From contig JAYTHY010000092.1 in NCBI GenBank assembly GCA_043732185.1, forward strand, positions 1 through 64,000: a stretch of DNA of 64,000 nucleotides, in the 5' to 3' direction. The number at the start of each line of letters is the position of its first letter. Positions within the stretch are counted from its first letter, which is position 1. This DNA comes from Fibrobacteria bacterium (GTDB taxonomy: Bacteria > Fibrobacterota > Fibrobacteria > UBA11236). A model generated the notes under the pieces. That model was not told where the DNA came from. It saw nothing but the letters and a program-made list of their open reading frames with translations, and searched no databases. A program made the translations under genes and the position numbers. This document shows positions 24,594 through 62,752 of the stretch, in pieces.

Positions 24594-25772
24594 ATGGCTC
24601 GTCCCGAAACCACGGTCACTTTGGCCCTTGGAAGCAATCTAAATGATCGGGAATCCTACCTCCAAAAGGCCTTGGATGCTCTGCGTACCATTGCCGTTTC
24701 ACCTATAAAGAAAAGCAAGGTATACGAAACGGATCCTGTGGGCCCCGGCACGCAGGGCAAATACCTCAATTTATGCGTTCGTTTTTCCACTCGACTTGAC
24801 CCATTCGCCCTATTAGCGTTTTGCAGCGAGACCGAAAAACGATTGGGGCGCATTTCCGCGGAACGATGGGCTCCCAGAGAAATCGATTTGGACATTTTAG
24901 CCTATGGACGGGAAATCATCCAATCCGATGGCCTGACAGTTCCCCATGCCGCCATTGCGAATCGCCAGTTCGTCTTGTTTCCTTTGGTGGATTTGGATCC
25001 AGGCTTTGTGTTACCCGGGTTTACAGAAACGGTGGAGGCCATGCTGGATCACGCATTGGGTGTTCAAGGACCTCAGGGAATTGAGGAATACCGTCCTTTG
25101 CCAACCACTACCGCTTCCTTGCCAGAACGTGTGCGCTACGTTGCCGTGGAAGGCGTCATTGGCGTGGGGAAATCCACCTTGGTCAAAGCTCTCAGTGAAC
25201 GCATGGGCTGCATGCCGGTTTATGAAGAGTTCGAAAACAATCCGTTTTTGTCCGACTTCTATAAAGACAAAAATCGTTACGCCTTTCAAACCCAAGTCTT
25301 TTTCTTTCTATCCCGCTACCGGCAAATCAAAGAATTATTCCAGCAGCAGGATTTGTTCCACCCGCAGATTATCAGCGATTATATGTTCGCGAAGGATAAA
25401 ATTTTCGCCACTTTGAACCTCGATGAAAACGAGGTGGCCCTGTATTACAAATTCGCCGATTTGATGGAGCGGAGCTTAGTCAAGCCGGATTATGCCGTAT
25501 ATTTGCAGGCCGATACCAAAACTTTGCTGCAACGTATCCGCATGCGAGATCGCGCCTATGAGCGCAGCATCGATGAAAATTACATCGAAGCGCTCAATCA
25601 GGCCTACAATACTTTTTTCCATTATTACACAGCATCGCCGCTGCTTATCATTAACACCAATAATATCGACTTTGTTCGCAACCCACAGGATTTGGAGCTA
25701 TTGACAGAATTGATATCCAAGGTGCCGGAAGGTGTTACGTATTTCTCCCCGACCTCGATGGGGAAAAAGTAG
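24594..25772 (+). CDS. folK: Fused HPPK (FolK) and deoxynucleoside-kinase-like protein
   Basis: ALGSNL, YETDPVG, WAPREIDLDIL, LTVPH, RQFVL; then P-loop EGVIGVGKST, NPFLSDFY, FQTQVFFFLSR, in one ORF. Confidence 0.93.
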   Translation: MARPETTVTLALGSNLNDRESYLQKALDALRTIAVSPIKKSKVYETDPVGPGTQGKYLNLCVRFSTRLDPFALLAFCSETEKRLGRISAERWAPREIDLDILAYGREIIQSDGLTVPHAAIANRQFVLFPLVDLDPGFVLPGFTETVEAMLDHALGVQGPQGIEEYRPLPTTTASLPERVRYVAVEGVIGVGKSTLVKALSERMGCMPVYEEFENNPFLSDFYKDKNRYAFQTQVFFFLSRYRQIKELFQQQDLFHPQIISDYMFAKDKIFATLNLDENEVALYYKFADLMERSLVKPDYAVYLQADTKTLLQRIRMRDRAYERSIDENYIEALNQAYNTFFHYYTASPLLIINTNNIDFVRNPQDLELLTELISKVPEGVTYFSPTSMGKK

Positions 25773-25828: not shown

Positions 25829-26686
25829 ATGGAAATTCTTAAGGACATTACCGCCTATCGCCGTTGGCGCGCAAATCTGAGTGCGCGTGGTACCTTGGGA
25901 AGCGACGTTTCTCTGGGTTTTGTTCCCACCATGGGGGCACTCCATGCGGGGCATCTCAAACTAGTAGCCACCAGTAAGGCAGCTAGCCAAAACACCGTGG
26001 TCTCCATTTTTGTGAATCCGCTTCAGTTTGGCCCAGCAGAAGACTTTTCCAGGTATCCGAGGCCATTGGATCAGGATTTAAAACTCTGCCGAGAAGCCGG
26101 CGTGGACGCCGTTTTCGTCCCGGAAACCCAGGATTTTTATGCCCCCGATCATGCCACTTATGTGCATGTGGAAGGGCTGGATCAACATCTTTGCGGCGCT
26201 GCCCGGCCCGGTCATTTTCGCGGTGTGTGTACCGTCGTGCTGAAGCTTTTACATATCATACAGCCGACCCAGGCCTATTTTGGGCAGAAGGATATTCAGC
26301 AGGCATTGATACTGCGAAAAATGGTGTTGGACCTGTCCTTGAATATCCGTCTCGAAATCGTCGAAACGGTGCGTGAACCTTCCGGGCTTGCCTTAAGTTC
26401 GCGCAATGCATACTTGAGTTCGGATGAAAAAGTGCGGGCCACAGCGCTGTTTCGTGGGTTGAATAGAGCGCAAGCCGCTTATGCAAACGGTGAACGGTCA
26501 GCGGAGAATTTACAGGGCCTGGTTCAAGAGGAAATCAATGCGGCTCACCCGAATCGCATCGATTATATCCAGATGGTATCACAAGGCCTGCTTCAACCCG
26601 TAAAGGTCATTTCAGAACCTGCGGTTTTAGCCTTGGCCGTTTATTTCGGGAAAACGCGACTCATCGATAATCTTCTTATCGGATAA
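25829..26686 (+). CDS. panC: Pantoate--beta-alanine ligase
   Basis: FVPTMGALHAGH, SIFVNPLQF, RPGHFRGV, FGQKD, GLALSSRN, RLIDN. Confidence 0.97.
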   Translation: MEILKDITAYRRWRANLSARGTLGSDVSLGFVPTMGALHAGHLKLVATSKAASQNTVVSIFVNPLQFGPAEDFSRYPRPLDQDLKLCREAGVDAVFVPETQDFYAPDHATYVHVEGLDQHLCGAARPGHFRGVCTVVLKLLHIIQPTQAYFGQKDIQQALILRKMVLDLSLNIRLEIVETVREPSGLALSSRNAYLSSDEKVRATALFRGLNRAQAAYANGERSAENLQGLVQEEINAAHPNRIDYIQMVSQGLLQPVKVISEPAVLALAVYFGKTRLIDNLLIG

Positions 26687-27903: not shown

Positions 27904-28293
27904 CTAGATCCCAAAACGTGCGATGGCAGTGGTTTGAATGCCACCACGCGCATTGAATACGCCGCGCACTTCCATGCTTTTGGGGGCACAGGCCTTGACG
28001 CAATCACCGAGAACGCGGTTGACCACATGTTCATGAAAAATCCCTAGGTCTCTGAAAAAAAGAAAATATTCTTTCAAACTTTTCAGTTCCAAGCAAAGTT
28101 TTTGCGGCACATAAATGATTTCCAAAGTGGCAAAATCCGGCAAGCCCGTTTTCGGGCATATGCACGTGAACTCGGGGATAGCTACTTCCAATCGGGTATT
28201 GCTGCCCGGATACTGGAATTCCCACGCTTCGATTTCAGGCGTCGACAAGGAGGCAATATCCTTCTGCAGGCCTTGATATGAGGATTCGATCAT
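27904..28293 (-). CDS. queF: PreQ0 reductase QueF (short type)
   Basis: EFTCICPKTGLPDFATL (catalytic Cys), ELKSLKEY, FHE, RGGI. Confidence 0.95.
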   Translation of the reverse strand: MIESSYQGLQKDIASLSTPEIEAWEFQYPGSNTRLEVAIPEFTCICPKTGLPDFATLEIIYVPQKLCLELKSLKEYFLFFRDLGIFHEHVVNRVLGDCVKACAPKSMEVRGVFNARGGIQTTAIARFGI

Positions 28294-41414: not shown

Positions 41415-42956
41415 ATGGCAATGACCACTGAAGATAAAAGCCGGAGTACGTCCAATTTTTTCCATACCAAAGGCCGCTGCCCGGATGATTGTCTAATCAT
41501 TATTTTTGGCGGGTCCGGCGATCTGGCCAAACGGAAGTTGTTTCCCGCTCTCGGAAACCTTCTGTTCAAAAAGCTTCTGCCGGCCAACTTCAGGATTATC
41601 GGTGTGGGACGCAAGCCCATGGAGCCGCAGCAACTCCTCTCCATGGGTAAGTATCCTTCCGAGTTTGAAAAACATTTTCTGTACCTGCAAACCGATTATA
41701 GCCCATCGGGAATCCAGAAGCTCAAAGAAACCTGTGATCAAATCTGCAAGGACACGGGGATTCCTCCCAACTACCTTTTCTATTTGGCCATTCCACCGGG
41801 CGGCTATGCCGAGGTAGCCGCAGCCCTCAAAAAGGGTGGCATGATTCATGGGCCTCAAGTCACGCATTGGAGCCGATTGGTAGTGGAAAAACCCTATGGT
41901 CGTGACATTGAAACGGCCACGGCCCTGAACGAAAATCTACTGGCCTGCTTCCGGGAAAAACAGATCTACCGCATCGATCATTATTTGGGCAAAGAAGCAG
42001 TACAAAATCTCCTAGTCTTCCGTTTTGCCAATTCGGTATTTGAACCCCTGTGGAACCACCATTACATCGACCATGTACAAATCAGTTCCTCGGAACTTTT
42101 GGGGGCCGAGGACCGGGCGGAATACTACGACAATAGCGGTCTATTAAGGGATATGATCCAAAATCACCTGATGCAAATCTTCTGCTTAGTGACCATGGAA
42201 CCGCCCGTGTCCTTGTCCGCTGACGCCATTAGGGATGAAAAGGTCAAAGTGCTGAGAAGCTTACGCCCGCTGGATTTGCAGGCTGTGCCGCCTCCCGCCA
42301 TTCGCGGCCAATATGGCCCCGGGACTATCAAAGAGGCCCCGGTCGTTGGCTATCGCCAAGAGAAAGGCGTTGCCAAGGATACCAGTACGGAAACTTTTGT
42401 GGCGCTTAGGATGAATATCGACAACAACCGTTGGGCCGGCGTTCCCTTTTATTTGCGATCCGGTAAACGGCTTGGCCGCAAAGGGACGGAAGTGGTCATC
42501 ACCTTCAAGCACCTTCCCAAGACTCTTTTCAACAGCAAGCAAGTGCCGGTTAAAAACAACCGTATCGTCTTTAAAATCCAGCCTCAGGAAGCCATTCTCC
42601 TGGAATTGACCAGCAAGAATCCCGGTCAAAGTTTTGAGCTGTCCGATACGTCCATGAATTTTTGTTACAGCGACCATTTTGACACCAGTGCGGATGCGTA
42701 TGAGCGCTTGCTGATGGATTCGATTTCCGGGGATCCGACACTATTCGTCCGCTCCGATGAAACCGAGCTCTCTTGGAAATACCTGGATCCACTTTTCAAG
42801 AATTGGCCAGTGCAACCCATGGGCGACAAATTTCCAAACTATGCAGCCGGTTCCGAAGGTCCAGCCGAAGCAGCCGATATTCTGATTCAGGGGGAGGAAA
42901 AGGTCGAGTGGCTCGACTTCTCCAAGTACGACAATATTTGCCTGCCGGAAACTTAA
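41415..42956 (+). CDS. zwf: Glucose-6-phosphate 1-dehydrogenase
   Basis: GGSGDLAKRKLFPAL, VEKPYG, RIDHYLGKE, RDMIQNHL, WAGVPFYLRSGK. Confidence 0.97.
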   Translation: MAMTTEDKSRSTSNFFHTKGRCPDDCLIIIFGGSGDLAKRKLFPALGNLLFKKLLPANFRIIGVGRKPMEPQQLLSMGKYPSEFEKHFLYLQTDYSPSGIQKLKETCDQICKDTGIPPNYLFYLAIPPGGYAEVAAALKKGGMIHGPQVTHWSRLVVEKPYGRDIETATALNENLLACFREKQIYRIDHYLGKEAVQNLLVFRFANSVFEPLWNHHYIDHVQISSSELLGAEDRAEYYDNSGLLRDMIQNHLMQIFCLVTMEPPVSLSADAIRDEKVKVLRSLRPLDLQAVPPPAIRGQYGPGTIKEAPVVGYRQEKGVAKDTSTETFVALRMNIDNNRWAGVPFYLRSGKRLGRKGTEVVITFKHLPKTLFNSKQVPVKNNRIVFKIQPQEAILLELTSKNPGQSFELSDTSMNFCYSDHFDTSADAYERLLMDSISGDPTLFVRSDETELSWKYLDPLFKNWPVQPMGDKFPNYAAGSEGPAEAADILIQGEEKVEWLDFSKYDNICLPET

Positions 42957-44188
42957 GGCTTACGGGAGATTAGGCTCCGCATTTTCCAGATAAGCGACGG
43001 CGAGGACCAAAGGGTCGTCAGGAAAATGCGTGTCATGCTTCTTTTATTTGCGGGAATGCGCGCCAGCTTGAGCGCTGCCTTATTAAAGGTTTCATCTTTG
43101 ACCTCGGAAAACGGACCCTTGGCCTTGTGAATCCGCATATTGGCATGTCCATACGCCGCATCCCAAGCCTGCTTATACCCGATGTAATGCTGCTGCTTTT
43201 GCGATTCCGTATCTAGTTCAATCACTTTGAGTGCGGCCTGCGCTGCCAGTTTCCCGCCTTGCATGGCTTCCAGAATACCGGCACGACTGATAGGATTGAC
43301 CATATTCGCGGCATCGCCAACTTTGAACAAGTTTTCTACGGCCATAGGTTGGTGCGTATAGCCGCAAGGTATGACGCCTCCGTGCAGCGTCTCGATTGTG
43401 GCACCAGGATAGACTTGGGCTAAAAAAGTCTGCATGGTTTTACGCGCTGGGGCCTCTTTGGCAAACCGTTTTCCAATGACAAGCCCGACATTCGCCACTT
43501 CCTGGTCTCGGGGAAATAGCCAAGCATACCCACCTGGGGCATAGCATTTTCCGAAAAACATTTGAATGTAATTGGTGGGATATTTTAGCCCCCGGACTAA
43601 AGCAAAGAGCGCTGGCTCCACGTCAAAATCACCCTGTACGATTTTCTCACCTTGGCCAAAACCGAGTCCGGGACCACTGGCGTCAAGGACAACGCGCGCC
43701 TTAATTTCACCGGAAATATCTCCTGCATAGGCAACGGTCCGGTAGCCACCTGCATACGGCGAAACCGTCACGGCCCGCGCGCGGAAATTGCAATGTACGC
43801 CCTGCTTTTGACACTGCTCCGCCAACTGCTTGTGCATGAGGGCTCGATCGATCAAAAGTCCGCTGCCAGGACTGTCGAATACAACAGCCGTGCCGTTTGG
43901 AGCAATGAAATGGACACCGTCGATGGGACCGCGAATCCAACCTGGCTCTACCTTGGGGACCAACTCCCGCAAGCCTTTGGCGGATACGGCCTCAGCGCAA
44001 GAAACGGGTTCGCGCCACGGGTCGCGTTTGTCCAGCAAGGCAATTCTGTAAGCGCGTGGCTTGCTTCCAGCTATTTGAGAAGTCGAGCCAGTGGAATTAG
44101 CCAACCCCAAATTCAGGGCTGCCAACAAGCCTCCAGGCCCAGCACCAATCACAACAAAATCATATTCGGCCAGTAGCGTGTCTTTCAT
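42953..44188 (-). CDS. Geranylgeranyl-reductase-family FAD oxidoreductase
   Basis: IGAGPGG, PVSCAEA, APGGYAWLFP, VGDAA..VNP...AGI. Confidence 0.88.
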   Translation of the reverse strand: MKDTLLAEYDFVVIGAGPGGLLAALNLGLANSTGSTSQIAGSKPRAYRIALLDKRDPWREPVSCAEAVSAKGLRELVPKVEPGWIRGPIDGVHFIAPNGTAVVFDSPGSGLLIDRALMHKQLAEQCQKQGVHCNFRARAVTVSPYAGGYRTVAYAGDISGEIKARVVLDASGPGLGFGQGEKIVQGDFDVEPALFALVRGLKYPTNYIQMFFGKCYAPGGYAWLFPRDQEVANVGLVIGKRFAKEAPARKTMQTFLAQVYPGATIETLHGGVIPCGYTHQPMAVENLFKVGDAANMVNPISRAGILEAMQGGKLAAQAALKVIELDTESQKQQHYIGYKQAWDAAYGHANMRIHKAKGPFSEVKDETFNKAALKLARIPANKRSMTRIFLTTLWSSPSLIWKMRSLISRKP

Positions 44189-44257
44189 CGATTCCTAAAA
44201 TTCTTCATAGTGACCTAAATGTAGTGGCAAGCCACTCAGAATACCAGGCGAACAATC

Positions 44258-44950
44258 CTAAACCAATGGCAACTGCCAATCAATTGCTGCTTGTCCCGAA
44301 GCCAGTAATAATTTATTCGTTTGCGAAAAATGTCGGCATCCCAAAAAGCCTGTATGCGCGGAAAAGGGCGACGGATGGGGTGCGGTTAAGACATGGTGGC
44401 GCTTGGCATCGATGATGGCGCCTTTCTGTTGGGCTGGTTTGCCCCAGAGGAGAAATACCAGGCCCTTTTTTTCAGCATTGAGAGATTGGATCACGGCATC
44501 AGTGAAAGCCTCCCAGCCTTTCCCATGATGGGAGGCTGCCTGTCCGGCCCGCACTGTCAAAACCGAATTCAACAGCAATACGCCTTGGGTAGCCCAAGAC
44601 TCGAGGTTGCCGTGCGTGGGCGCCGTGCATCCGACATCGGTTAGCAATTCCTTATAAATATTCATTAGGCTTGGTGGCGGCTTAACACCTCGCAATACAG
44701 AAAAACAAAGTCCATGCGCTTGGCCCGCACCATGATACGGATCCTGACCGAGTATCACCACTTTGACGGCATCAAAGGGCGTCTTGGCAAAGGCATTGAA
44801 AATAAGTGATCCCGCTGGGTAGAGGACCTCTCCCAGTTGCCTTTCCTCGAGTAGAAATCGACGCAGCTCAATGAAATAGGGCTTGGTGAACTCGCCTTTG
44901 AGTTTGGCTTTCCACGAGGGTTCCATTTTTGGGTCGATGTTATTTTCCAC
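44258..44950 (-). CDS. ung: Uracil-DNA glycosylase (family 1)
   Basis: [29 protein letters not shown]; start placed at GTG 44950. Confidence 0.96.
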
Positions 44951-44952
44951 TT

Positions 44953-46818
44953 TTACAGCAAGCCCCACAGCCCACGGCCCCGCGCAGCCATAGCCTCTAC
45001 CCTACGCACCACGTCAGGATCCGATTCCAAAGCAGGCGCATGATGCGGCTTTATTCTGGCATCCACAATCAAGGGACCGCGGCAACCCCAATGTTTGTCT
45101 TCCGTAAACGCCCAAATTCCATGGATATCCCGGGCTGGATCGGACCTAGTAAAAGTGACCCACAGGAAATTATCCAACCGTTCAGCCGAAAAGCGAACCT
45201 CATCGACCAAGACAAGCATTGCCAATCCCCGGAAAAACTCCGCATCCGCCGCATCAGGCTGCATGCCCGCGCTTTCACAGGCTGTCACTAAGCGCCCCAC
45301 GTCGGCTTTGCCTTTTACCCCATCGCGAAAGGCTGGCGAAGCCACTACCAGTATTCCTGGTAAGGCCATTTCCACACCGGTAAAACCGTCCGGCAACAAC
45401 TGAACAAAACGCGCCGGGACTTCGGTTGCCAACGCCCGCCTCTTAGGTCCGGCAGCCGCGATCACCACTTTAGATCCTGCATTAAGCCCTGTACCGGTAT
45501 AATCTAGGGTATCTTGCGTGGTACAGGTTTGGAAATGCAAATCCGTGCGCCAATCGACGCGTTCCAGAACGTGGGTAAAAAAATCCGCCACATTCCGGAT
45601 ATCCAAATCCGGCTTATCTTCCTTGGCTGACAATAAAAGGAATTTCGCCAAAGACAGCTGACCATATCCGAGTATCGCATTGGCTAAGGTCAGCAATTCG
45701 CGGGGTTTGCGTTCCGCATATGGCACATAACGTTCGCTACCGATAGCCAATAAGAGCGGATGCACTCCCGAGGCTTCCACCGCATGCACGGCGTGCAGGC
45801 CCGGGATTTCCACGGGCAATAGCGGTCCCGCCAATTCATGGATGAGCTCGGCAAAATGGGAATCCTCTTGAGGGGGCCTTCCGACCACGGTAAAAGGCCA
45901 AATCGCATCTTTACGGTGGTAGACCTTTTCCACTTCCATGACTGGAAAAGGATGGGTCAAACTGTAATAACCTAGATGGTCCCCAAAGGGGCCTTCCGGC
46001 AAGGTGTGCCCGGGATCGATGGTTCCCACTATACAGAAGTCCGCGTCTGCGGAGAGCAAATGTCCACCCTCGCGGGTATATCCAAACCTGCGGCCTGCCA
46101 ACATCCCTGCAAAAAAAATTTCCGGCATGCCTTCCGGCAACGGCATCACCGCAGCCAAAGCATGAGCCGGCGGCCCGCCCACAAAAATGGAAACCTTAAG
46201 TTTCTCACCTCGGTTGATGGACGCATGGTGGTGCACGCCAATGCCTCGGTGAATTTGGTAATGGAGACCTACTTGCGCTCCAGGCTGATACTGGCCCCCG
46301 GATAGCTGTATGCGATACATCCCCAAATTGGAATGCCGGATACCGGGATGATCCGGATGTTCCGTGTACACCTGTGGAAGGGTGATAAAAGCCCCGCCGT
46401 CTTTGGGCCATCCCACGATTTTAGGAAGACCATTTAGACTGGTTGTACATTCCATCACCCCGGCACGGTTCACTTGCCTAGGCAAACCATGCCATGCCGT
46501 CCAGGGCAACTTCCACTGCCGCCAAGGCTGCCGGGTCCACGCCATGGGATCCCGCTTTAAATCGAGCACCGCTTTTACGTTGGTCAATGTATGTCTAAAT
46601 AGAAAGTGGGTCCTTTTTTGTGTGCCGTAAAGATTGGCAAGGCATGGGAATCCAGTTCCCTTCACACGCGTGAACAGCAACGCCGGGCCTTGGGCCGCAT
46701 AAACCCGTCTTTGAATTTCGGCCATTTCCAGATGGGGATCGACTTCCTCATCGACGCGGCGCAACTGGCCATGCCGTTCCAAATCCTCAACACAATCCCG
46801 CAAACTGGAATAGGCCAT
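44953..46818 (-). CDS. UbiD-family (prFMN) decarboxylase
   Basis: [43 protein letters not shown]. Confidence 0.92.
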
Positions 46819-46837
46819 GACTACTTCTGAACCAGAA

Positions 46838-47218
46838 TCATAGGACTACGGCATCCGCCTCGATCTCCACCAACATCTCTGGTGCAATGAGCCGCTTGAC
46901 TTCCACCATGGTGGTCACGGGACGAATATCCCCGAAAACTTCTCCATGCGCTTTCCCAGCAGCTTCCCAAGCCGAGATATCCGTCATGAAAATGCGGGTC
47001 CGAACCACGTTCTGCAAACCGGCTCCGGCTTGACCTAATGCGGATGCGATGTTTTGCAGCGCTTGCTTCGTTTGCGCATAGGTGTCGCCCGTGACCTTAC
47101 CGGTCGCATCGGACCCGGTTGTCCCGGACACAAAAACTTGATTGCCGATTCGGACCGCACGCGAATAACCGATGATGGGTTCCCATTTGGAACCGGTGGA
47201 TATGTTCTTTCTTTCCAT
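46838..47218 (-). CDS. RidA/YjgF-family protein
   Basis: WEPIIGYSRAVR, VSGTT, VVRTRIF, RPVTTMVEV, LVEIEADA. Confidence 0.92.
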   Translation of the reverse strand: MERKNISTGSKWEPIIGYSRAVRIGNQVFVSGTTGSDATGKVTGDTYAQTKQALQNIASALGQAGAGLQNVVRTRIFMTDISAWEAAGKAHGEVFGDIRPVTTMVEVKRLIAPEMLVEIEADAVVL

Positions 47219-47315
47219 ATATAGACTCCGGATGGTAAAGTGGAAGGGCAAATATATTAGTTAATGACCGCGGCTCCCACCTATAAGTCCGAACTCCCAC
47301 CCAACTCGCGCAGTA

Positions 47316-48515
47316 TCACGAATTGAGCAGCAGCTTGGCCACAATTGGAGAGTAACGCTTTTGCACCCAAGCCGGATCCGGAGCGGCTTTTCCCCGTAAA
47401 CACGCTTTCAAATCCGCATCAAGCATAAAAAGGAAGCTGGCCCATTCACGATGCAAGGGAGAAACCCAGTCCCAAATCAAGGGGTGCAGGGCTTTACGCA
47501 GTACGGCCACCGAGTCTGCTTTCAAATCTGAGTCAGCGGCGCGAAAAAATGGGGATTCCAGAAAACGAGCCACCTTTTTGAAATCATCCGGAACAGCAAA
47601 TGCATCCAGGGTTTGCCGCCAAGCTTTTTCCGGACTCAAGCCAGCGCGAAAGGCCGCTAGTAAAGACAGGAGAAACATATCCGTTACCGGTAATCCCGTA
47701 GGATTGAGAAGCACGCCCCGCGTCCATTTCCAAAGGCCTTGAGTGCGGCCTCGGTAAGGACCCACGAACAATTTGTTCGGACAATAATCATTGGCATACA
47801 AGTTGTCCCAGATCACCACATTGCCGTTAAAAAGTTTTGCCACAGAGCGAATCGCTTCGGCCGACAAATTTTCGGAAATAATATTCGGACCCGTCCACAT
47901 CACGGTAACTTCTTTGGGCAAAGTGGCTGCCAAATCGAGCAGGTAGATATCCTCTGCAGGCTTGCCTGGTTTTCCTTTGGCATTGCGGGCAAATTGGTCC
48001 GTATACACGGTGGGACAGAACCACAAACGGCAAGCCTGGCCGGAGCGATTCAAATCTTCTAGGAGTCGGGCCACCAATTGGCCATGGGCTTGACCTAGGC
48101 TGTGAAATGCATTTCGGCAGGCCGCAGGTAGATCCGGCGGAATATCGTCCATAAGTAAGGCCATAAGAGTGCTACCGGCATCCCGAAAAACCGAAAACTT
48201 TTGCAAGAGTGAGCGATAATCTTTTTCATTCAGATACTCAAAGGAAAGTCCTGGAGCCAATCCTGGTATGGCTTGTACATTATGGCGCGCAGCCTTGGCA
48301 GTGAAGCTGGACCAATTCTCGAGCCATTTTTTTCCATAGGGTGTGCGCCACTCGCGACGATGCAGGGGATCCTCTTTAGGCGCATAGAGATAGCTGTCAC
48401 CCCCCAGCTTTCCCAAATGCTCGACCAGCATATGGCGATCTTCCCAGTCCATCAGGCGCCAATAATAGCCCTCGATATATCCCCAATGCGAATTTGGTTT
48501 TGCTTGTCTAGCCAT
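47316..48515 (-). CDS. GH84 beta-N-acetylglucosaminidase (O-GlcNAcase-like), no signal peptide
   Basis: GYIEGYY, YLYAPKEDPLHRREWR, catalytic LMDDI, FCPTVY, WTGP, WDNLYANDY. Confidence 0.9.
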   Translation of the reverse strand: MARQAKPNSHWGYIEGYYWRLMDWEDRHMLVEHLGKLGGDSYLYAPKEDPLHRREWRTPYGKKWLENWSSFTAKAARHNVQAIPGLAPGLSFEYLNEKDYRSLLQKFSVFRDAGSTLMALLMDDIPPDLPAACRNAFHSLGQAHGQLVARLLEDLNRSGQACRLWFCPTVYTDQFARNAKGKPGKPAEDIYLLDLAATLPKEVTVMWTGPNIISENLSAEAIRSVAKLFNGNVVIWDNLYANDYCPNKLFVGPYRGRTQGLWKWTRGVLLNPTGLPVTDMFLLSLLAAFRAGLSPEKAWRQTLDAFAVPDDFKKVARFLESPFFRAADSDLKADSVAVLRKALHPLIWDWVSPLHREWASFLFMLDADLKACLRGKAAPDPAWVQKRYSPIVAKLLLNS

Positions 48516-48533
48516 GCGTTCGCTTGCTGTCCT

Positions 48534-49334
48534 TCACCTAGCCGGTTCGAGGCCGTTCAATTTCAGCATATAGCCACCGGCCACATCCAGGTTCACGCCC
48601 GTGACGTAACCGGCACGTTCCCCCACCAAAAATTCAACAGCATCACAGACATCTTCGCATTTCCCCAATCGCTCCAGGGGAATATGGTCTTTGGGATGCT
48701 GGGGCAGCTCCACGCTATTGTCCAGTATACCCGGCGAAACCATGTTGACTCGAATAGCCCGTGGTCCCAATGCCTGCGCCAACGATTTGGTCAGTACCAA
48801 TAATCCATTTTTGGAAATGAGATACGCTGTATTGTGAACGCTGGCTGACTGATTCTCAATTCCGGCATAGCCGATATTCACAATCGACCCACCGGCCTTG
48901 GGGAAAAGCGGCAAACAACTTTGCGACAAATGAAAGGCCGCCACCAAATTGGTCTGAAGCGTAGCGGCGAAATCCTCTATGGAATACTCAAGTAGGCTTC
49001 CGGTGCGATAGATGCCGACATTATTGACAAGAACATCCAACCGTCCGGATTGCATCCTGATTTTTTCCACCAGCGCTCGCACCTCGCCCGCTACGGCAAC
49101 ATCTGCCTGTACCAAGGCACCTCTGCCGCCCTTGGAATGGATTAGCGCCAATACGGCTTCCGCCTCACTTTTCGAGGACAGGTAATGCACCCAGGTAAAA
49201 TAGCCCGCACTCGCCAGGCGCATCGCCAGGGCCTTGCCCAGACGTTTGGCGGAACCGGTTACCAGCGCCGCTTTTTCCACCGAGGATTCGCTCAAGTTAT
49301 CTTTAGAGACAGAAACGTCAACACCATCCATCAT
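48534..49334 (-). CDS. SDR oxidoreductase, pteridine/dihydrofolate reductase-like
   Basis: TGSAKRLG, VHY..S, LVNNVG, IVNIGYAG, YLISK (YxxxK), DVAGG; ATGA overlap with folB; start uncertain. Confidence 0.8.
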   Translation of the reverse strand: MMDGVDVSVSKDNLSESSVEKAALVTGSAKRLGKALAMRLASAGYFTWVHYLSSKSEAEAVLALIHSKGGRGALVQADVAVAGEVRALVEKIRMQSGRLDVLVNNVGIYRTGSLLEYSIEDFAATLQTNLVAAFHLSQSCLPLFPKAGGSIVNIGYAGIENQSASVHNTAYLISKNGLLVLTKSLAQALGPRAIRVNMVSPGILDNSVELPQHPKDHIPLERLGKCEDVCDAVEFLVGERAGYVTGVNLDVAGGYMLKLNGLEPAR

Positions 49335-49690
49335 TGCCCAGCAGTCCATTCCGAGGTAACCGAGGCGTAACTGGCTTTAGGCAGGGCGGAAGGTTTTTTG
49401 ATGGTGACTCTGCAATAGCTGATTTGGGGCCATTCGTCGGTGATTAAAATACAGGCCCGGGTGGCCAAGGTTTCAATCAGTTGGAATTTCTCCCTTTGCA
49501 TCCAAAGCTCCAACATATGCGCCAAGCGAGTATAGTCGATGGTGAGATCGATCCTGTCGGTATGCGCTGCTTCGCTGAAATCAAATTTTAGATTCAGATC
49601 GACCAGCAGGTCCTGCTCGATTTTGCGCTCTTGATTGTGCACACCGACAATACACCGGATACGTAAATCGTGAACATCCAAAACACCCAT
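49331..49690 (-). CDS. folB: Dihydroneopterin aldolase
   Basis: CIVGVHNQER..EQ, TIDY, FQLIETLA, IKKPSA. Confidence 0.92.
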   Translation of the reverse strand: MGVLDVHDLRIRCIVGVHNQERKIEQDLLVDLNLKFDFSEAAHTDRIDLTIDYTRLAHMLELWMQREKFQLIETLATRACILITDEWPQISYCRVTIKKPSALPKASYASVTSEWTAGQ

Positions 49691-50577
49691 CAGGTTGCCT
49701 CACTTTCCAGGATTTTTTCCAAGAGCGATCGCGTTGGACCATTCAAAGCCAAGCCCATGGCCTCACGCGGCGCGACCCAAAGATACGCTTCACTTTCATA
49801 ATTCAGCTTTACGTGTGGTTGAGAACCGACGACCTTGGCTGTATAGTTGACCAGTAAAAAATGCCGTGGCCGATAAAACTCGGGATGCTCAATGCAGTCA
49901 TGAATCATCACGAAACGCACGTCTTCAATGTCCAATCCGGTTTCTTCCTTGATTTCCCGGACAAAGGCAGCCTGCATGGATTCTCCATATTCGATTTTCC
50001 CGCCAGGTATGCCATATAGATTGGACCATTTACGCGTACGCACCAGCAAGGCTTTCCCTTGGTCGTCAAAAATAAGCCCCCCAACCGTTGCCACCGGAAA
50101 GTGCCGACTTTCCACAAACGCCATTTTATTGAGGTAGCGCAACAATTCCGGAAAGGAATTGAAAAGCATATCCGGTTCCGAGGCAGACAATTCAGCAGCT
50201 GGGGTATGCCCATAGGCAACCGCCAGGGATTGCACACCGGCGGCTTTGGCGGCTAGGATGTCCTGCGGCATGTCTCCCACCGCCACGGTTTCATCCTGGC
50301 TTAATCCCAGGTCTTTAATTAGGATCGGTAATGCGGAGACTTTGTCAACCACCGAGCCATACACACTCTGGAAATACTGTCTCACTTCCAGCAGATTCAA
50401 GGACTCTTCCAGCAGGGATTGGTTTATTCTTGAGACCAAAAAAAGTTTGTGGTTGCAGGCCAGACAGGCCAATCCTTCGCGCACACCCGGCAATAATGCA
50501 AACTGCGTGGGTGAGGCCCTTAGGGATAGCCCTTGATCCGCTGCCAAGGTGCCGGCCCAATCCAGAATAATATTCAT
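49690..50577 (-). CDS. HAD-phosphatase-like and Nudix hydrolase fusion
   Basis: HAD motifs DWAGT, LVS, K, VGDMPQD; complete Nudix box GKIEYGESMQAAFVREIKEETGL. Confidence 0.9.
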   Translation of the reverse strand: MNIILDWAGTLAADQGLSLRASPTQFALLPGVREGLACLACNHKLFLVSRINQSLLEESLNLLEVRQYFQSVYGSVVDKVSALPILIKDLGLSQDETVAVGDMPQDILAAKAAGVQSLAVAYGHTPAAELSASEPDMLFNSFPELLRYLNKMAFVESRHFPVATVGGLIFDDQGKALLVRTRKWSNLYGIPGGKIEYGESMQAAFVREIKEETGLDIEDVRFVMIHDCIEHPEFYRPRHFLLVNYTAKVVGSQPHVKLNYESEAYLWVAPREAMGLALNGPTRSLLEKILESEAT

Positions 50578-51173
50578 CGGCTTTGCGCGAGTAGATTCAA
50601 TGCGTTTTCAATGCGGTAGTGAAGCGATCGAGATTCCAATAAACGTTGCAGATAAATAGGCGGGAGGTGCAGGCACCCACATAAAAACAGGGAATAATTC
50701 TCGCGATCCATATCCGCGCGCAGCCCGGCCATCACTTCAAGGACGCCCTGACTTTCTTCAGGACCCAATACTATGGCCATTTTCAGTATTTCCGCTTCAA
50801 GTAGCGGAAGCTTGTCTGCGGCACCAGAAATCTCGGGTTCATCCCGATATTCCGAGCATTCTGCTGCCAGGTACACGTGCGATTCACGATTGAAGGCGTC
50901 CAAATACACCCGATGCAATCCCCGAGGTTTGATGAATTGAAAATCACCTTGTCGCTGAATGGATTCCACCTCCACCAAACAGCCTACGCGATAGGGAGTC
51001 GCCTCGCTGCCAGCCTCCTCACCCGAGCTTATCAAGGAAATAACGAAGCGCGAGTCGCTTTCAATATCCCTGAGCATGCGGGAATACCGGTCCTCGAATA
51101 TCTTGAGGGGGATCTTATGCCCAGGGAAACACAGTGTTTTCAACGGAAATACGGGAAATTCCCCCAGACTCAT
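50574..51173 (-). CDS. Stand-alone LON substrate-binding domain protein
   Basis: PVFPL...FPG..IPLKIFEDRY..M, QRLLE; ATGA overlap with the HAD-Nudix gene. Confidence 0.88.
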   Translation of the reverse strand: MSLGEFPVFPLKTLCFPGHKIPLKIFEDRYSRMLRDIESDSRFVISLISSGEEAGSEATPYRVGCLVEVESIQRQGDFQFIKPRGLHRVYLDAFNRESHVYLAAECSEYRDEPEISGAADKLPLLEAEILKMAIVLGPEESQGVLEVMAGLRADMDRENYSLFLCGCLHLPPIYLQRLLESRSLHYRIENALNLLAQSR

Positions 51174-51248
51174 GCTGCAAATATAACACGAAAACCGGTC
51201 TAGTACTATTGCGGATTTCCTTTGGGCTTCTTGTTAGATTATGCTGCA

Positions 51249-52412
51249 ATGTCGCGTACTGTCTGGCTTGGGTTTTTACTTCTTTGCGCTGTGCAAGCGT
51301 CCAAGGCTGAAAATTTGGATGGTCTCAACCAGGCCCAGGGTGTCAACTTAAGCTTGGAAGAAGGCTTTGGGGCTCGCCCAGCCGGAATGGCGATTGGTTT
51401 CGCGGGATTCCAGCGGGATGCCGACGCCGTGGCCAATGCTCCAGCCTCCATGAATGACATCGATGACTTTACCTTTTCTACCGCGCATGCGGAAAAATTC
51501 GGGTCAGCAAAATTCGATGACTTCGCGTTTCTCTTACCGTTCCAAACGAACAGCACTTTGGGTCTGGGCATTTCCAGGTACGGAGTCAGTGGCATAGATT
51601 TGCGTCCTGAAGGGACTTCGGTCCAACAGTCGCAGCCTACGGAATTGTTCTCCGTTGCCGATTATTTGGTAGTGGCCGCATTTTCCAGGCGCTGGGGAGG
51701 CCTGGATGTGGGCATGAATTTCAACCTGCTCTACCGCCAACTCGACCAAGACGGAATCGGCATGCGCGGTGACGCCATGGCGCAATACACCTGGGGAGGA
51801 TGGTTGCGTGTAAATGCGTTGATAAAGGGTCTGGTTCCTTCTTCTACATCCTGGGAATCCGGGTATAAAGAATATGAACCTTCCGATATATACCTAGGGG
51901 CTGCCGCGCGAGTGCCCACCCCTTATTTTTACGGCTCCCTGCAATTAGCCGCACAAACGGAAGGATTGTTCCAGAACCAGGCCAAATCCATCAACTCCCT
52001 GCAGGGATCGCGAATTTATACCGACCCTCAGGAAATCTTGGCCACCATGAATCTCGGGCTGGAATATCTTTTTGATTTTGGCCTGTCTTGCCGCTTTGGA
52101 GTGAATGAATTCGCCCTCTCTAAATCGATTTCCTCGCTAACAACTTTTGGTATCGGATATACTTGGCACAAAACTCTGGGGTTGGATTATAGCTTTACTC
52201 CCCATCCTGATCTCCTGTCCACGCACCGAGTTTCTTTGCAGTTCACTCCGGTTTTTCCCAAATTCAGCGGTCGAAATTTCCGGCCGAAATTGCTGCCCCA
52301 CTCTACCCCACCAGCGGCAACGCAATCCGAATCCTCTCTAGTTCCGGCAATCGACAAATCTAAACCCGCTGGCGGAAAAGAAATACTCGAGGAAGAGGAA
52401 GAGTCTCCCTAA
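51249..52412 (+). CDS. PorV/UPF0164-like outer-membrane protein
   Basis: Signal peptide; GFGARPAGMA...DADAVANAPA; LDYSF...LLSTHRVSL. Confidence 0.8.
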   Translation: MSRTVWLGFLLLCAVQASKAENLDGLNQAQGVNLSLEEGFGARPAGMAIGFAGFQRDADAVANAPASMNDIDDFTFSTAHAEKFGSAKFDDFAFLLPFQTNSTLGLGISRYGVSGIDLRPEGTSVQQSQPTELFSVADYLVVAAFSRRWGGLDVGMNFNLLYRQLDQDGIGMRGDAMAQYTWGGWLRVNALIKGLVPSSTSWESGYKEYEPSDIYLGAAARVPTPYFYGSLQLAAQTEGLFQNQAKSINSLQGSRIYTDPQEILATMNLGLEYLFDFGLSCRFGVNEFALSKSISSLTTFGIGYTWHKTLGLDYSFTPHPDLLSTHRVSLQFTPVFPKFSGRNFRPKLLPHSTPPAATQSESSLVPAIDKSKPAGGKEILEEEEESP

Positions 52413-52484
52413 GGGATTCCATACAAACACCTTGGATAGCTCCAAATTCTGCTCAAATGCGATGCTTGGCTTGGGCCGGCCTGC

Positions 52485-52961
52485 TCAGACCAGGGCTTCC
52501 TGATATTTTTCCAAACTTGGAACGATTTTCATCACACGATCTAAATCCATAATTTGCAAACTCTCCAGGGTGGCAGGCTCTGCGGCAATGATGAAAATAG
52601 GTTTGCCGTGGATGGAAAGCGATTGCATAGTTCTAACCAACAAGCCGATTAGGCTGCTGTTGAGGTGGGCAGAATTGCGAAATTCAAATGCAATAGAGTC
52701 GGTTTCCAGCATGGATAGTTCATCGATTTGAGCTCTTAACGCTTCCAATTCCTCTACTTTATGGGCTGGGCCAAGCACAGAAAAAAGCACGTGTCTCCCC
52801 TGCCTAGCCAACTTAAAGTGGCCCACATTAAGCGCCTGCGTCTGGGATGGCACCTGACAATTTGGACAGGCATTCTGTCCCGATAGGGATCCCGTATAAA
52901 CCTGCCCGCAAGCCCGGCACTTGTGAAACTTAACTGTTGGGAAATCTTCTTCGTTTCTCAA
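52485..52961 (-). CDS. Zn-ribbon plus STAS (anti-anti-sigma-like) protein
   Basis: CRAC...CPNC; HLNSSLIGLLV, LQIMDLDRVMKIV. Confidence 0.8.
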   Translation of the reverse strand: MRNEEDFPTVKFHKCRACGQVYTGSLSGQNACPNCQVPSQTQALNVGHFKLARQGRHVLFSVLGPAHKVEELEALRAQIDELSMLETDSIAFEFRNSAHLNSSLIGLLVRTMQSLSIHGKPIFIIAAEPATLESLQIMDLDRVMKIVPSLEKYQEALV

Positions 52962-53181
52962 AGCGGTTTGCTCCGTTCATTAAAAAAATTTAAGGGTTCG
53001 AGCTGGTAAGCCACTATACCCCTACTAAATGGCCAAACCAAGCCAAAAACACAATTTTTTCCCCTAAATATACTTTGCCTAATGAATAATTTTGTAACTT
53101 TTTGGCTATCTGTCGCGAACATTCCCTATCTAGGGCAGGGCATGGTCTACCCGATATTAAGGGTAATACCCGGGGGTACTT

Positions 53182-55560
53182 ATCAAATTTGATATTCGTT
53201 CTGTAGGTATTTTCGACGTCGTTTCCGCCCGGCTGGGCGATACCGAAGTTTTCGACTCCGCCAAACTCAAGAACACGGTTCGATTCCTAATTGAAAACGA
53301 CATGAGAAATGTCGTCATCGATCTCGGTAACCTTGAGTATCTCTACAGCGATACTATCAATGCGTTCATCGCATCGAATCGGCATATGCTGGAGGTGAGC
53401 GGACGCATCGCAATCCTGACAGAACATCCCAAGGTACAAGATATTCTCAAACGCGCCGGCTTAGACAACATCATGCGTATCTACCGCTCGGAAGCGGAAA
53501 TGATTGCGGACTCGAAAGAAATCCTTCGACAAACCTCCAGCTATCGCATCGAAGAATTACAGAAATTTTCAAATCAGGAGCCGGAGCAACCACAAATTCC
53601 CCGCACGGAATTCGATGATTTCAAAGCCGAAATGGGCCAACGCCTCAGTACCAAGCTCGATAATAATGAGCTTCCTCAGTACCAGCTTGGTACCCAACCC
53701 AGTTCCAATCCTGGTATTCCTCCACAGCCGCCCCGCGATGCAAATGCCGCATACCCCACCTTTCTCGCGCCAAAATTTCCTGCGCCGCAGCTTCCGGATG
53801 CCCCTTCACAAAATTATCTCCAAGGCCAAAAACCACCGGCGTACGATCCCTATAACACTCAGGCTCCAGGAAACGCTGGTCCAACTTTTACGCCGCCGCC
53901 TCCCCCGAACTTCAATCAAGGTCCGGCAAACTTTGATTACCCTACCGTGCAGTTGCCAGTAGGTCAGTTTGGGGCATCTACACCACAACCTCCTACGCCG
54001 CCTGTGCAAAATCCTTCCGATCAGGGCTACACCACCCAAGAACCCAGAGAAGAAAATGGCCCTGTCGATCCACGTCAGCGTATGCCAGCTCAGGATAGAA
54101 TGCGCAGTCCGAATTCACGGAGACCACCTGGCCGAAGGGCTGGAGGTCGAGATTTCCAGGAGCAGGATGAACAGCAGGAAGTCCAGGCCCCATTAGGTCG
54201 AGTTGAGGAAAAAATTCCTACGCCTTCAATGCGGGAACCGGAAAGGCAGCCCCCTGTAGATTTGCCTCCACTGCATACAGAAAACCTGGCGGAAGAATCG
54301 CATTTTTTTGCCAAGCTCATTGTCGCCATTCTCCTGCTCGCAGCAGTAGGTGGCGGATACCTGTTCTTTACCGGAAAAATCGGTACGTTTACTGTCCCAG
54401 CGAACTCAACGCCAGTTATTCCTGAAGCGACCGTACCACCCCCAATCGATGAGCCATCGCTCCCACCTACTGAACCTCTGCCGCCACTCGTTACGGAGCC
54501 AGTGGCTCCAAGTACGGCCGTTCAAACGCCGACGCAAGTCCCCGCCGCCAAGCAGCCAGTCAGCAAAAAACCACCTGTAGCAAAAACTGCCGAAATTCCG
54601 AAGCCGGTAAGGGAACCGGCAAAAGCCGTTGCGCCGCCTGCTGAAGAGCCCTCCCAGGTAACACCGTTGGTACCGGTATCCAAGCATGTCGCAGCTCCTG
54701 TCGCCACCCCAAAACCGGTCAAAACGACTGCCCACGTTAAACCAGTAAAAGCAGCTAAGCCGGAAAAAGTTGAAAAGCCGGCTGCTCAACCGAAAGTGGC
54801 TAAAGAACCTGAACAAAGCGAAATGACGGCCGGTCTACATATTACCAGCAATCCGCCGGGTGCAGAAGTTCTCATCAATTTTTCCAAACGCGGAAACACT
54901 CCGTTAGACATTACACTCACGAACAATTCCAATAAAATTATAGTGCGACTGCCGGGTTACAAAAGGTATGAGGTTACCTTACCCAAAAACCACCCGGATC
55001 ATGAGCTGGACATCGACTTGGAAAAGGAAGAGTCTTCGGAACCTAAGGCTGTCACTAAACAAGAACCGAAACAAGAATCAAAACCAGAACCCAAGGCAGA
55101 ACCTAAACAAGAACCAAAGGTAATTGCTAAGCCGGAACCAAAAATCATTGCCAAGCCAGAACCAAAACCAGAGCCCAAAGTCATTGCCAAGCCCGAGCCC
55201 AAAGTGGAAAAGAAACCCACTCCCGAGCCCGAACATGAAAAATATCAGGAGCCCGAAGACCTACCTGTAGCCAAAGCCAAGCCTGAAAAGGCTGAGCGGG
55301 CGCCAACTCCAGCCGTTTCACGGCCAGAGCCAGAGGCACCGACTGGAGATGGACCGATTGGAATCATTTTCCTTTCTAGCAGCCCCGCTCGCGCAAATAT
55401 TATTATCGATGGAAAGGATACCGGTAAACTAACACCCGCCAAACTAGAGTTGCCTTCCGGAAGCCACCGCATTGAAATGTCCCTCAAGGGCCAAAAGAAT
55501 TCGGTGACTCAAATCGTAAATGAAGGAAAGAACAAGGCCGTCCATTTGACCTTGCAATAA
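53182..55560 (+). CDS. STAS - Pro-rich linker - TM - Pro-rich linker - two PEGA domains; start probably upstream of ATG 53302
   Basis: VVIDLGNLEYLYS (STAS); TM LIVAILLLAAVGGGYLFF; PEGA ITSNPPGAEV...GNTP and LSSSPARANIIIDG...TP. The frame is open 40 codons upstream of the ATG with STAS-like sequence. Confidence 0.85.
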   Translation: MKFDIRSVGIFDVVSARLGDTEVFDSAKLKNTVRFLIENDMRNVVIDLGNLEYLYSDTINAFIASNRHMLEVSGRIAILTEHPKVQDILKRAGLDNIMRIYRSEAEMIADSKEILRQTSSYRIEELQKFSNQEPEQPQIPRTEFDDFKAEMGQRLSTKLDNNELPQYQLGTQPSSNPGIPPQPPRDANAAYPTFLAPKFPAPQLPDAPSQNYLQGQKPPAYDPYNTQAPGNAGPTFTPPPPPNFNQGPANFDYPTVQLPVGQFGASTPQPPTPPVQNPSDQGYTTQEPREENGPVDPRQRMPAQDRMRSPNSRRPPGRRAGGRDFQEQDEQQEVQAPLGRVEEKIPTPSMREPERQPPVDLPPLHTENLAEESHFFAKLIVAILLLAAVGGGYLFFTGKIGTFTVPANSTPVIPEATVPPPIDEPSLPPTEPLPPLVTEPVAPSTAVQTPTQVPAAKQPVSKKPPVAKTAEIPKPVREPAKAVAPPAEEPSQVTPLVPVSKHVAAPVATPKPVKTTAHVKPVKAAKPEKVEKPAAQPKVAKEPEQSEMTAGLHITSNPPGAEVLINFSKRGNTPLDITLTNNSNKIIVRLPGYKRYEVTLPKNHPDHELDIDLEKEESSEPKAVTKQEPKQESKPEPKAEPKQEPKVIAKPEPKIIAKPEPKPEPKVIAKPEPKVEKKPTPEPEHEKYQEPEDLPVAKAKPEKAERAPTPAVSRPEPEAPTGDGPIGIIFLSSSPARANIIIDGKDTGKLTPAKLELPSGSHRIEMSLKGQKNSVTQIVNEGKNKAVHLTLQ
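55039..55233 (+). repeat. TonB-like EPK / (V/I)IAKPEPK coding repeats
   Basis: EPKAVTKQEPKQESKPEPKAEPKQEPKVIAKPEPKIIAKPEPKPEPKVIAKPEPKVEKKPTPEPE. Confidence 0.85.
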
Positions 55561-61600: not shown

Positions 61601-62752
61601 ATGGCTGAAATGCATAGCCCGCTGCGCCGGGAAGACCTTCAGGATTTTTTCGCAAGTAAGCCCCGCATTCTTGAATGGGGTATTGCTAAAGCGGGTAAGA
61701 CGCCAAACGCCGATAAATTGCAAAACTGGATCAGCCAAGGCCATCATGGAAAACTGACCTACATGGAAACTAGGCTACAGGAACGCATGAATCCTCAAGC
61801 CTTTCATCCCTGGGCAAAGTCCGTGGTGATCTTTAGTTTTCCCTACGCCCGCGCATTGGGCGACGGCAACTTCAAACCGATTCCTGGCGAGGCAAACGGT
61901 CCTCGCTACCGCGTCGCAGCTTATGCCGGTGCGAGGGATTATCATGATGAAGCGCGGGCTATTCTTAAGGAAGCCGAAGCGTTCCTCAAAATACGCACCA
62001 GCCATCCCGACCTCAAGTTTTATGGATTCGTGGATACTGCGCCAATTTTTGAACGCGATTTAGCCACAGAAGCCGGCCTAGGATGGCGAGGAAAAAATTG
62101 TTGCACATTAAGCAGAGAACACGGTTCTGCATTCCATTTAGCTGGCTTCCTGCTCGATGCGGAATTGCCAGTGGCTACGCCAAGCCAAGAATTTTGCGGC
62201 GGTTGCACACGCTGTTTGGACGAATGTCCCACCGACGCATTTATGGGGCCTGGACACCTGGACGCGACTAAATGCATTTCCTATTGGACCATCGAAGCCA
62301 AATCGGAACCGCCGGCGGAGCTCACGCCAAAATTTGGAAGTTGGATTTTTGGCTGCGATGTTTGCCAGGACGTTTGCCCGTGGAATCAAAAAGCTGCGCG
62401 TGATAAAGCGGTTGCTGAACGATCGCTGCACCTCTCGAACACGGACATAGATGATGAAGATGGAATGTTTCCAGAGGATGGTCTCGCATGGTTACGACTC
62501 CTTCGTAAGGGCGGCGGCTTGCAGAGCCGTTTCCGGCACAGTCCTTTACTACGCGCCGGTCGAAAAAGTTTGCTCCGAAATCTAGCTGTGGCAGCGGGGA
62601 ATTTGCGTGACCTATCTCTTTTGAAACCACTACAAGAGCTGCTTCCCCAAGAAGAGGACCCGGCCGTTCGAAAGGAAATCGAAAAGGCTATTTTAACATT
62701 TTTGACTCTTCCGGAATCCGGAGCGGACTCCGAGGCTATTCCAGGCCGGTAA
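61601..62752 (+). CDS. queG: Epoxyqueuosine reductase
   Basis: DYH, VDTAPIFER, AGLGWRGKN, CGGCTRCLDECPT, CISYWTIE, GCDVCQDVCPWN. Confidence 0.95.
   Translation: MAEMHSPLRREDLQDFFASKPRILEWGIAKAGKTPNADKLQNWISQGHHGKLTYMETRLQERMNPQAFHPWAKSVVIFSFPYARALGDGNFKPIPGEANGPRYRVAAYAGARDYHDEARAILKEAEAFLKIRTSHPDLKFYGFVDTAPIFERDLATEAGLGWRGKNCCTLSREHGSAFHLAGFLLDAELPVATPSQEFCGGCTRCLDECPTDAFMGPGHLDATKCISYWTIEAKSEPPAELTPKFGSWIFGCDVCQDVCPWNQKAARDKAVAERSLHLSNTDIDDEDGMFPEDGLAWLRLLRKGGGLQSRFRHSPLLRAGRKSLLRNLAVAAGNLRDLSLLKPLQELLPQEEDPAVRKEIEKAILTFLTLPESGADSEAIPGR

Follow-up and report, generated by a model that had tools for sequence, protein, structure and literature searches.

The subject of this report is a stretch of 64,000 nucleotides (nt) from a Fibrobacteria bacterium (contig JAYTHY010000092.1 of assembly GCA_043732185.1; the whole stretch is called the window), in which a minus-strand gene encodes a protein of 295 amino acids (aa), P0001, that joins an N-terminal HAD half to a C-terminal Nudix half directly upstream of the gene for dihydroneopterin aldolase, FolB. 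On balance, our sequence comparisons lean towards a reading in which the Nudix half performs the pyrophosphatase step before FolB, with the HAD half being, in this genome, impaired, unspecific or a structural remnant. FolE2 would make 7,8-dihydroneopterin triphosphate, the Nudix half would hydrolyse the triphosphate to the monophosphate and pyrophosphate, and the fusion would be co-translated with the sole FolB of the genome and with a pterin reductase of the FolM/PTR1 type. In full-length relatives of ~348 aa, the HAD half, with its motifs DW[A/S]GT and GDxxHD and a C1 cap, would be the best candidate for a dihydroneopterin-monophosphate phosphatase; in this genome, having lost the cap and the His of motif IV, it is probably weak, unspecific or merely structural, and, in line with the textbook pathway, the last phosphate would be left largely to other phosphatases. 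A sequence-only reading of the window had proposed that the one fusion protein of this operon carries out both dephosphorylations. Of that proposal the pterin/folate operon stands, as does the Nudix half as the best FolQ/NudB candidate, given its synteny with folB and the lack of a PTPS-III gene; the part assigned to the HAD half of this particular protein, which has no cap, no motif-IV His and no Asp at the position two residues after the nucleophile (Asp+2), fares poorly.

The fusion gene (49690..50577, minus strand, 888 nt), in which Pfam recognises NUDIX and HAD_2 within one open reading frame (ORF), lies between a gene for a protein consisting of a LON-N domain only (50574..51173, minus strand, 199 aa; PF02190, LON_substr_bdg, 1.1e-18, profile positions 2-199 of 200) and folB (49331..49690, minus strand, 119 aa; PF02152, 1e-28). 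The latter is followed by a gene for a FolM/PTR1-type short-chain reductase (SDR; 48534..49334, minus strand; adh_short_C2, 1.7e-47). The overlap of these four genes, claimed earlier, was confirmed at every junction read in the sequence: the LON-N stop and the fusion start share ATGA, the fusion stop and the FolB start share TGATG with an overlap of 1 nt, and the FolB stop lies inside ATGATG, where an SDR start at 49334 would give ATGA. The true start of the SDR is uncertain, since 49331 may serve as well as 49334 and the longest ORF (48534-49349, 271 aa) begins at 49349, with a 19-nt overlap with folB.

To place the protein in its family, a word-indexed search was run, which returned 954 relatives; the 120 listed are mostly proteins of ~348 aa with a HAD and a Nudix domain, which their sources, if they give a name, label 'phosphoglycolate phosphatase', 'NUDIX domain-containing protein' or 'hypothetical protein'. 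The HAD-Nudix family is thus large and uncharacterised. A scan of loci with one genome per species yielded at least 530 confirmed loci, the best 80 of which were examined; in 78 of these the fusion ORF is complete, and the 77 with 400 nt or more of downstream sequence were assessable. By their titles, five of the 80 are Fibrobacteria, one is Planctomycetota and most others belong to Verrucomicrobiota lineages, including Akkermansia. The sequence-only reading had made its case depend on the fusion accompanying folB in other genomes, and so it does: in 70 of the 77 assessable loci a same-strand FolB starts downstream at a distance of no more than 300 nt, and in two more it lies at 410 and 684 nt. 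Within the window's genus, the order LON-N, fusion, FolB was found at 12 of the 13 loci fetched, the remaining one ending at a contig edge. Since the order is kept in the genus and FolB follows the fusion so regularly beyond it, the operon arrangement is more than chance. When 142 flanking ORFs from 19 loci were scanned with Pfam, no other neighbour proved to be conserved across phyla, and in the same scan a reductase after FolB occurred only in Fibrobacteria and at the loci L014 and L030. Eight of the fusion-bearing contigs from metagenome-assembled genomes (L013, L026, L039, L069, L073, L080, L082, L088) have titles with the names of unrelated taxa (Klebsiella, Bifidobacteriales, Blastochloris), and their bins are probably mislabelled; FolB follows the fusion in six of them, L013 being cut at the fusion and L069 lacking FolB.

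The state of the folate pathway was examined in the window's genome (G000; 4.46 Mb, 100% complete, 1.21% contamination). FolE2, FolK, FolP and FolA are present, and no match to a type-I GTP cyclohydrolase I (FolE-I) was found in this genome. The window's folB is its single PF02152 match, passes the equivalog model TIGR00525 (83.8 bits, cut-off 72.15), and retains E21, Y53, E73 and K99, which are invariant among 45 FolB sequences and which we take to be the catalytic residues. The available part of PMC5041015 assigns the motif CxxxHGH to QueD and ExxHGH to the FolB-bypassing PTPS-III. The single PTPS homologue of the genome reads CGRIHGH, that is, the QueD type without ExxHGH, and a PTPS-III bypass of FolB was ruled out on this ground, in keeping with the earlier expectation that no such bypass gene would be found. 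Six Nudix genes are present in the genome, of which only the fusion touches the NudB model (25.3 bits, cut-off 103). Judged by these genes, the organism makes folate de novo and needs FolB, and it has no recognisable stand-alone FolQ or NudB.

The Nudix domain (residues 158-295 and the stop; 49690..50106, minus strand) matches PF00293 over residues 163-276 (1.3e-20; 74.2 bits vs a cut-off of 21.1). Its Nudix box, read from the translation as G193-x5-E199-x7-R207-E208-x2-E211-E212-x-G214-L215 (49933..50001, minus strand), is intact, and G193, E199, R207, E208, E211 and E212 are each invariant in all 110 members of the family alignment from which our column counts are taken. Among the best PDB matches of the Nudix half is Arabidopsis NUDX1 (1.5e-8), a plant enzyme that, according to the available part of PMC1971073, is reported to hydrolyse dihydroneopterin triphosphate. 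Taken together, these comparisons make it very likely that the Nudix half is a dihydroneopterin-triphosphate pyrophosphatase of the FolQ/NudB type that feeds the sole FolB.

The HAD half presents a different picture. Its reduced core (residues 1-150; 50128..50577, minus strand) has the core set of the HAD superfamily, namely the nucleophile D6 in motif I, which reads DWAGT in the translation (residues 6-10; 50548..50562, minus strand), S49, K79 and the acidic pair D102/D106. Across the alignment, the nucleophile is Asp in 109 of the 110 members (one gap), the Ser/Thr of motif II, the Lys of motif III and the first Asp of motif IV occur in all 110, and the second motif-IV Asp in 109, the other member having Glu. 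The Asp+2 position is occupied by Ala in 64 members and Ser in 45, by Asp in none of the 110, and by Ala8 in P0001; the available parts of PMC11084212 and PMC10541634 describe this residue as normally the general acid/base of HAD enzymes. A His precedes the second motif-IV Asp in 105 of the 110 members; in the other five the residue is Q in P0001, L in P0002, I in P0003, N in P0050 and S in P0067. Motif IV of P0001 accordingly reads GDMPQD, with Gln105, vs GDxxHD in the family, and position 105 varies between Q, L and I among proteins of 87-92% identity, P0001-P0003 being 87-89% identical to one another. In phosphoserine phosphatase the corresponding position makes contact with the phosphate, and the His is therefore a candidate substitute acid for the missing Asp+2.

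P0001 is a member of the family by descent, with 59% identity at 100% query coverage to the 348-aa P0004, and it carries the family marks DWAGT, the Nudix part (KWSxxxGxPGGK) and synteny with FolB, though not GDxxHD. What it has lost are 53 residues between motifs I and II, which make up most of the C1 cap and include every near-invariant cap position; the in-frame deletion maps to residues ~20-27 (50497..50520, minus strand), where relatives carry the 53 extra residues. Because the cap is missing, the HAD_2 match (PF13419, 4.5e-13) spans profile positions 77-178 only. The cap region is absent in five of the 110 members (P0001-P0003, P0050 and P0046), and all four cap-less proteins that retain motif I are also without the motif-IV His. 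An artefact of assembly or frame was considered and rejected, as the 888-nt gene overlaps both neighbours and the deletion recurs in two further genomes (G006, G012). The AlphaFold2 model of P0001 (mean predicted local distance difference test 94.1; predicted template modelling score (pTM) 0.86) has no helices in residues 12-31 and no helical cap. A Foldseek search of the PDB matched single Nudix or HAD domains only, the two-domain NadM hits having a root-mean-square deviation of ~18 Å; the HAD-Nudix architecture has no solved structure there. A predicted complex of the fusion with FolB scored 0.00, in a run without controls, and was used neither for nor against any reading.

The permanent lack of Asp at the Asp+2 position, as if protonation of the leaving group were unneeded, would also suit another explanation, namely that the family's HAD half has a function other than that of a dihydroneopterin-monophosphate phosphatase and that its substrate either has a good leaving group or is a C2 by-product, two candidates being pyrophosphate set free by the Nudix half and glycolaldehyde phosphate. 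In the glycolaldehyde-phosphate variant FolB would cleave the monophosphate directly, and no monophosphatase would be needed. Phosphonoacetaldehyde hydrolase, a HAD enzyme with a C2 aldehyde as substrate, likewise has Ala at this position, and the nearest curated HAD models of the HAD half are those of phosphoglycolate phosphatase and the pyrophosphatase PpaX. However, none of these NCBIfam models reaches its cut-off, all scores lying far below, and the phosphonatase model TIGR01422 gives fragments only. The pyrophosphate variant is hard to reconcile with HAD-FolB fusions that have no Nudix domain (described below), and, for the C2 variant, acceptance of the monophosphate by FolB was found neither in our results nor in an open-access paper. 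We therefore regard this explanation as very improbable.

The fate of the HAD half was followed in 61 related genomes, which were searched for the fusion. In the window's genus the fusion is full length in 11 of 15 cases (including the unpublished G015) and reduced in four, and in the taxonomic family of 32 genomes it is full length in 15, reduced in seven and Nudix-only in nine, one genome having no strong match. In P0081 and in the protein at locus L072 the nucleophile and the motif-IV acids are lost, and in P0046 motif I is lost; the Nudix domain is intact in all three. In a small-genome genus (g4), nine of 11 loci are Nudix-only and two have a HAD remnant, and FolB is the next gene in all 11, with the reductase after FolB in ten and the 11th cut by the contig end. 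On a tree of the Nudix domain, the reduced forms need at least four changes, at least two of which are forced by well-supported branches, in a tree that comes from a quick search and places L072 on a long branch. No close paralogue of the HAD half was detected in G000 or in a genome with a dead HAD. As the HAD half is dead or missing in 16 of these 32 genomes and no close paralogue replaces it, HAD activity appears to be dispensable in this family. The HAD core of P0001 itself shows modest extra divergence, with an identity of 0.60 vs a family mean of 0.69 at a Nudix identity of ~0.8.

A different impression of the HAD half is gained from its fusions to FolB. When 1.84 billion representatives were searched exhaustively by phmmer with the triple fusion P0102, 1122 hits were obtained at 1e-10; among the best 150 of these, 44 of which were scanned with Pfam, and with P0102 counted in, there are seven HAD-Nudix-FolB, 19 Nudix-FolB and 15 HAD-FolB fusions (the FolB match of P0246 is partial, and P0198 and P0201 are truncated). 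The motifs DW[S/C]GT and GDxxHD are present in all 22 HAD-bearing FolB fusions. The 15 HAD-FolB fusions without Nudix (P0174, P0186, P0189, P0191, P0194, P0195, P0197, P0199, P0205, P0206, P0209, P0226, P0228, P0246 and P0249) are ~325-350 aa long, all carry DWSGT and GDxxHD, and are annotated 'phosphoglycolate phosphatase' or 'dihydroneopterin aldolase'. Because Nudix-FolB and HAD-FolB fusions both exist, the HAD and the Nudix halves are each tied to FolB independently, and because the HAD domain is fused to FolB even in the absence of Nudix, the HAD subfamily as a whole is, as far as domain architecture can tell, a strong candidate for the monophosphatase, with a dedicated enzyme of this kind favoured in the full-length relatives. 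No paper naming this FolB-linked HAD subfamily, or a HAD-FolB link, was found in the open-access literature. Further architectures observed are Smr-HAD-Nudix (P0138), tetrapyrrole methylase-Nudix (P0190) and Nudix-cytidine deaminase (P0252), and P0122 consists of a HAD domain and an unassigned C-terminal part of 130 aa.

These fusions bring us back to the proposal that one protein does both steps, the Nudix half removing pyrophosphate and the cap-less HAD core specifically removing the last phosphate before FolB. The catalytic residues of the HAD half are kept and the ratio of nonsynonymous to synonymous substitution rates (dN/dS) of its core is ~0.25; the pTM of 0.86 suggests a fixed arrangement of the two domains; the subfamily was fused to FolB independently in 15 representatives; and the available part of PMC11084212 reports on Sav2152 D12A, according to which a change of Asp+2 to Ala need not abolish HAD phosphatase activity. 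Against this stand the loss of all conserved cap positions and of His105, the lack of an Asp+2 general acid for an alcohol leaving group, and the fact that, within this bacterial family, the HAD half has decayed or been lost independently, with Nudix, FolB and reductase retained. A specific second dephosphorylation by the HAD half in this genome is thus, in our view of the sequences, unlikely, and we would give both steps in one protein a minor share of the probability; the two-step idea is weaker here and would fit the full-length relatives better than P0001. A bolder form of it holds that the HAD with DW[A/S]GT and GDxxHD is the missing dedicated monophosphatase, that it works without Asp+2, the His of motif IV possibly serving as the acid in its stead, that the cap-less form is active with its site closed by Nudix or FolB, and that triphosphate is channelled through to the substrate of FolB. 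We consider this doubtful, and slightly more so than the plain two-step proposal.

Several observations weigh against the reading we favour, in which the Nudix half works before FolB and the HAD half is a remnant. With regard to the Nudix half, its score of 26 bits with the NudB model NF006961 (cut-off 103) indicates that it is not a NudB orthologue, and substrates of Nudix enzymes are not readable from sequence, as the available part of PMC1971073 points out. With regard to the association with FolB, an adjacent FolB is absent in five of the 77 assessable loci (L028, L032, L042, L045, L069) even when searched for with a hidden Markov model built from the first hits, and six of seven reduced homologues in the sister family f4 are not beside FolB and may act in another role; in L112-L116 and L120 of this family the homologues match approximately residues 73-293 and are embedded in longer frames of up to 642 aa. 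With regard to the HAD half, its core retains the five core residues and folds confidently, and among the three cap-less genomes its dN/dS is 0.22-0.29, that of Nudix being 0.08-0.14, which indicates purifying selection; the core may hence still be catalytic, for instance if the Nudix domain or a partner provides the lid. Relaxed selection was not demonstrated, the baseline from full-length congeners being near saturation (synonymous rate dS 0.85-1.2); for the same reason the HAD/Nudix ratio, 2.6-fold vs 1.4-fold, was dropped as a sign of relaxation.

Finally, the reductase leaves room for a product other than folate. Its best NCBIfam model is NF012208 (TmpR/FolM-type; 222.4 bits, the best of 229 models and under the cut-off of 325), its nearest PDB sequences are of the FabG type, and its TGSAKRLG fits TGX3RXG, which the available part of PMC1971073 names as the signature of FolM and PTR1. 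As this motif is present in 27 of 27 FolB-adjacent reductase orthologues and FolA is encoded elsewhere in the genome, the operon may supply a reduced non-folate pterin in addition to folate or in its place. In its strong form, the operon would mainly make such a pterin, similar in type to tetrahydromonapterin or tetrahydroneopterin, with FolB acting partly as epimerase, the Nudix/HAD module supplying dihydroneopterin to a FolM-type reductase, and folate as a shared side use. The presence of FolA, which makes the reductase unnecessary as a dihydrofolate reductase, and the conserved core of Nudix, FolB and reductase in the bacterial family agree with this, as does the argument, made in the available part of PMC1971073, that the normal role of FolM is not folate reduction. 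However, the sole FolB stands in a genome with FolK, FolP and FolA and so must serve folate, the pair of fusion and FolB occurs in Verrucomicrobiota without the reductase, and the reductase stays under the TmpR cut-off. A mainly non-folate operon is accordingly a remote prospect.

The surroundings of the operon are as follows. The LON-N protein has a single PDB sequence match (7cay, 2.3e-8) and matched no NCBIfam model; a LON-N protein directly upstream of the fusion was also seen at L100, in another genus, and at L104. On the other side, 18 nt past the reductase, begins a gene for a GH84-type N-acetylglucosaminidase-like protein (47316-48515, minus strand, 399 aa; PF07555, 3.7e-58), which also follows the reductase at L103 and lies 3 kb away at L009; beyond it, on the same strand, come RidA and then a UbiD-family gene. 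Upstream of the operon lie a divergent PorV/PorQ-like protein (51222-52412, plus strand; NF033709, 64.5 bits, under the cut-off), a small protein with a zinc ribbon and a STAS-like part (52485-52961, minus strand) and a Pro/Lys-rich PEGA-domain protein of 752 aa (53302-55560, plus strand); PEGA and STAS proteins flank the fusion also at L012, L072 and L010. A promoter and terminator scan of 42500-53500 was no richer than shuffles (8 vs a mean of 10.2; 20 vs 13.8). Elsewhere in the window, FolK, the enzyme of the folate step next after FolB, is fused to a deoxynucleoside kinase domain (24594..25772, plus strand, 392 aa; PF01288, 2.6e-35, and PF01712, 3.1e-41); no other HPPK match exists in the genome, and the gene adjoins panC (25829-26686, plus strand). 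The queuosine genes are scattered, with QueF (27904-28293, minus strand) and QueG (61601-62752, plus strand) in the window and QueD on contig C114 (L005, 1489-1851).

In the available parts of PMC1971073 and PMC4161248, 'non-specific phosphatases' are credited with taking off the last phosphate ahead of FolB. For this last unassigned step of the pterin branch, the HAD subfamily, found joined to FolB in three architectures, provides a concrete candidate, and one bacterial family in which the HAD half ranges from intact through cap-less and dead to absent, with Nudix, FolB and reductase kept, offers natural controls. The same series suggests that HAD activity is helpful and not essential, which fits the old view of the non-specific phosphatase, and the family-wide absence of Asp+2 is of interest for HAD enzymology.

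Among known systems, the Nudix half, with its intact Nudix box, resembles FolQ (YlgG) of Lactococcus lactis, NudB of E. coli and NUDT1/NUDX1 of Arabidopsis, NUDX1 structures being among its best PDB matches both in sequence and in fold, and it stands in a folate gene cluster as folQ does in folKEPQC, as far as the available part of PMC1971073 describes the latter. Unlike NudB, the window protein carries an N-terminal HAD half, and it is not a NudB orthologue (26 vs 103 bits). On the HAD side, the best sequence matches are in the HAD subfamily IA COG0546 (Gph, PpaX; PDB 2ah5, 3sd7, 3mc1), with which it shares a Rossmann-like core and motifs I-IV; relatives bear a C1 cap at the same place, where the window protein has none, and whereas the PDB HADs read DLDGT, the family has DW[A/S]GT, with GDxxHD in motif IV, and scores far below the curated cut-offs. 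The tetrahydromonapterin branch of E. coli and Pseudomonas comprises FolX, unidentified phosphatases and FolM. Like it, the window encodes a FolB-family protein and a TGX3RXG reductase together with dephosphorylating enzymes; in contrast to FolX, however, the window protein scores as FolB and is the sole aldolase of a complete folate pathway. A parallel in gene fusion is the FolQ-FolB protein of Parachlamydia sp. UWE25, listed in Table 2 of PMC1971073, a comparative-genomics paper of 2007. In both cases a pyrophosphatase is joined to FolB, and 19 Nudix-FolB representatives are homologous to the window's Nudix half; the window differs from Parachlamydia, which we know from that table only, in having separate, overlapping genes and a Nudix domain that comes with a HAD remnant. 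The link between Nudix and FolB was thus already known from that source, in its available part, and the present comparisons add the absence of Asp+2, the His of motif IV and the series of reduced forms of the HAD half.

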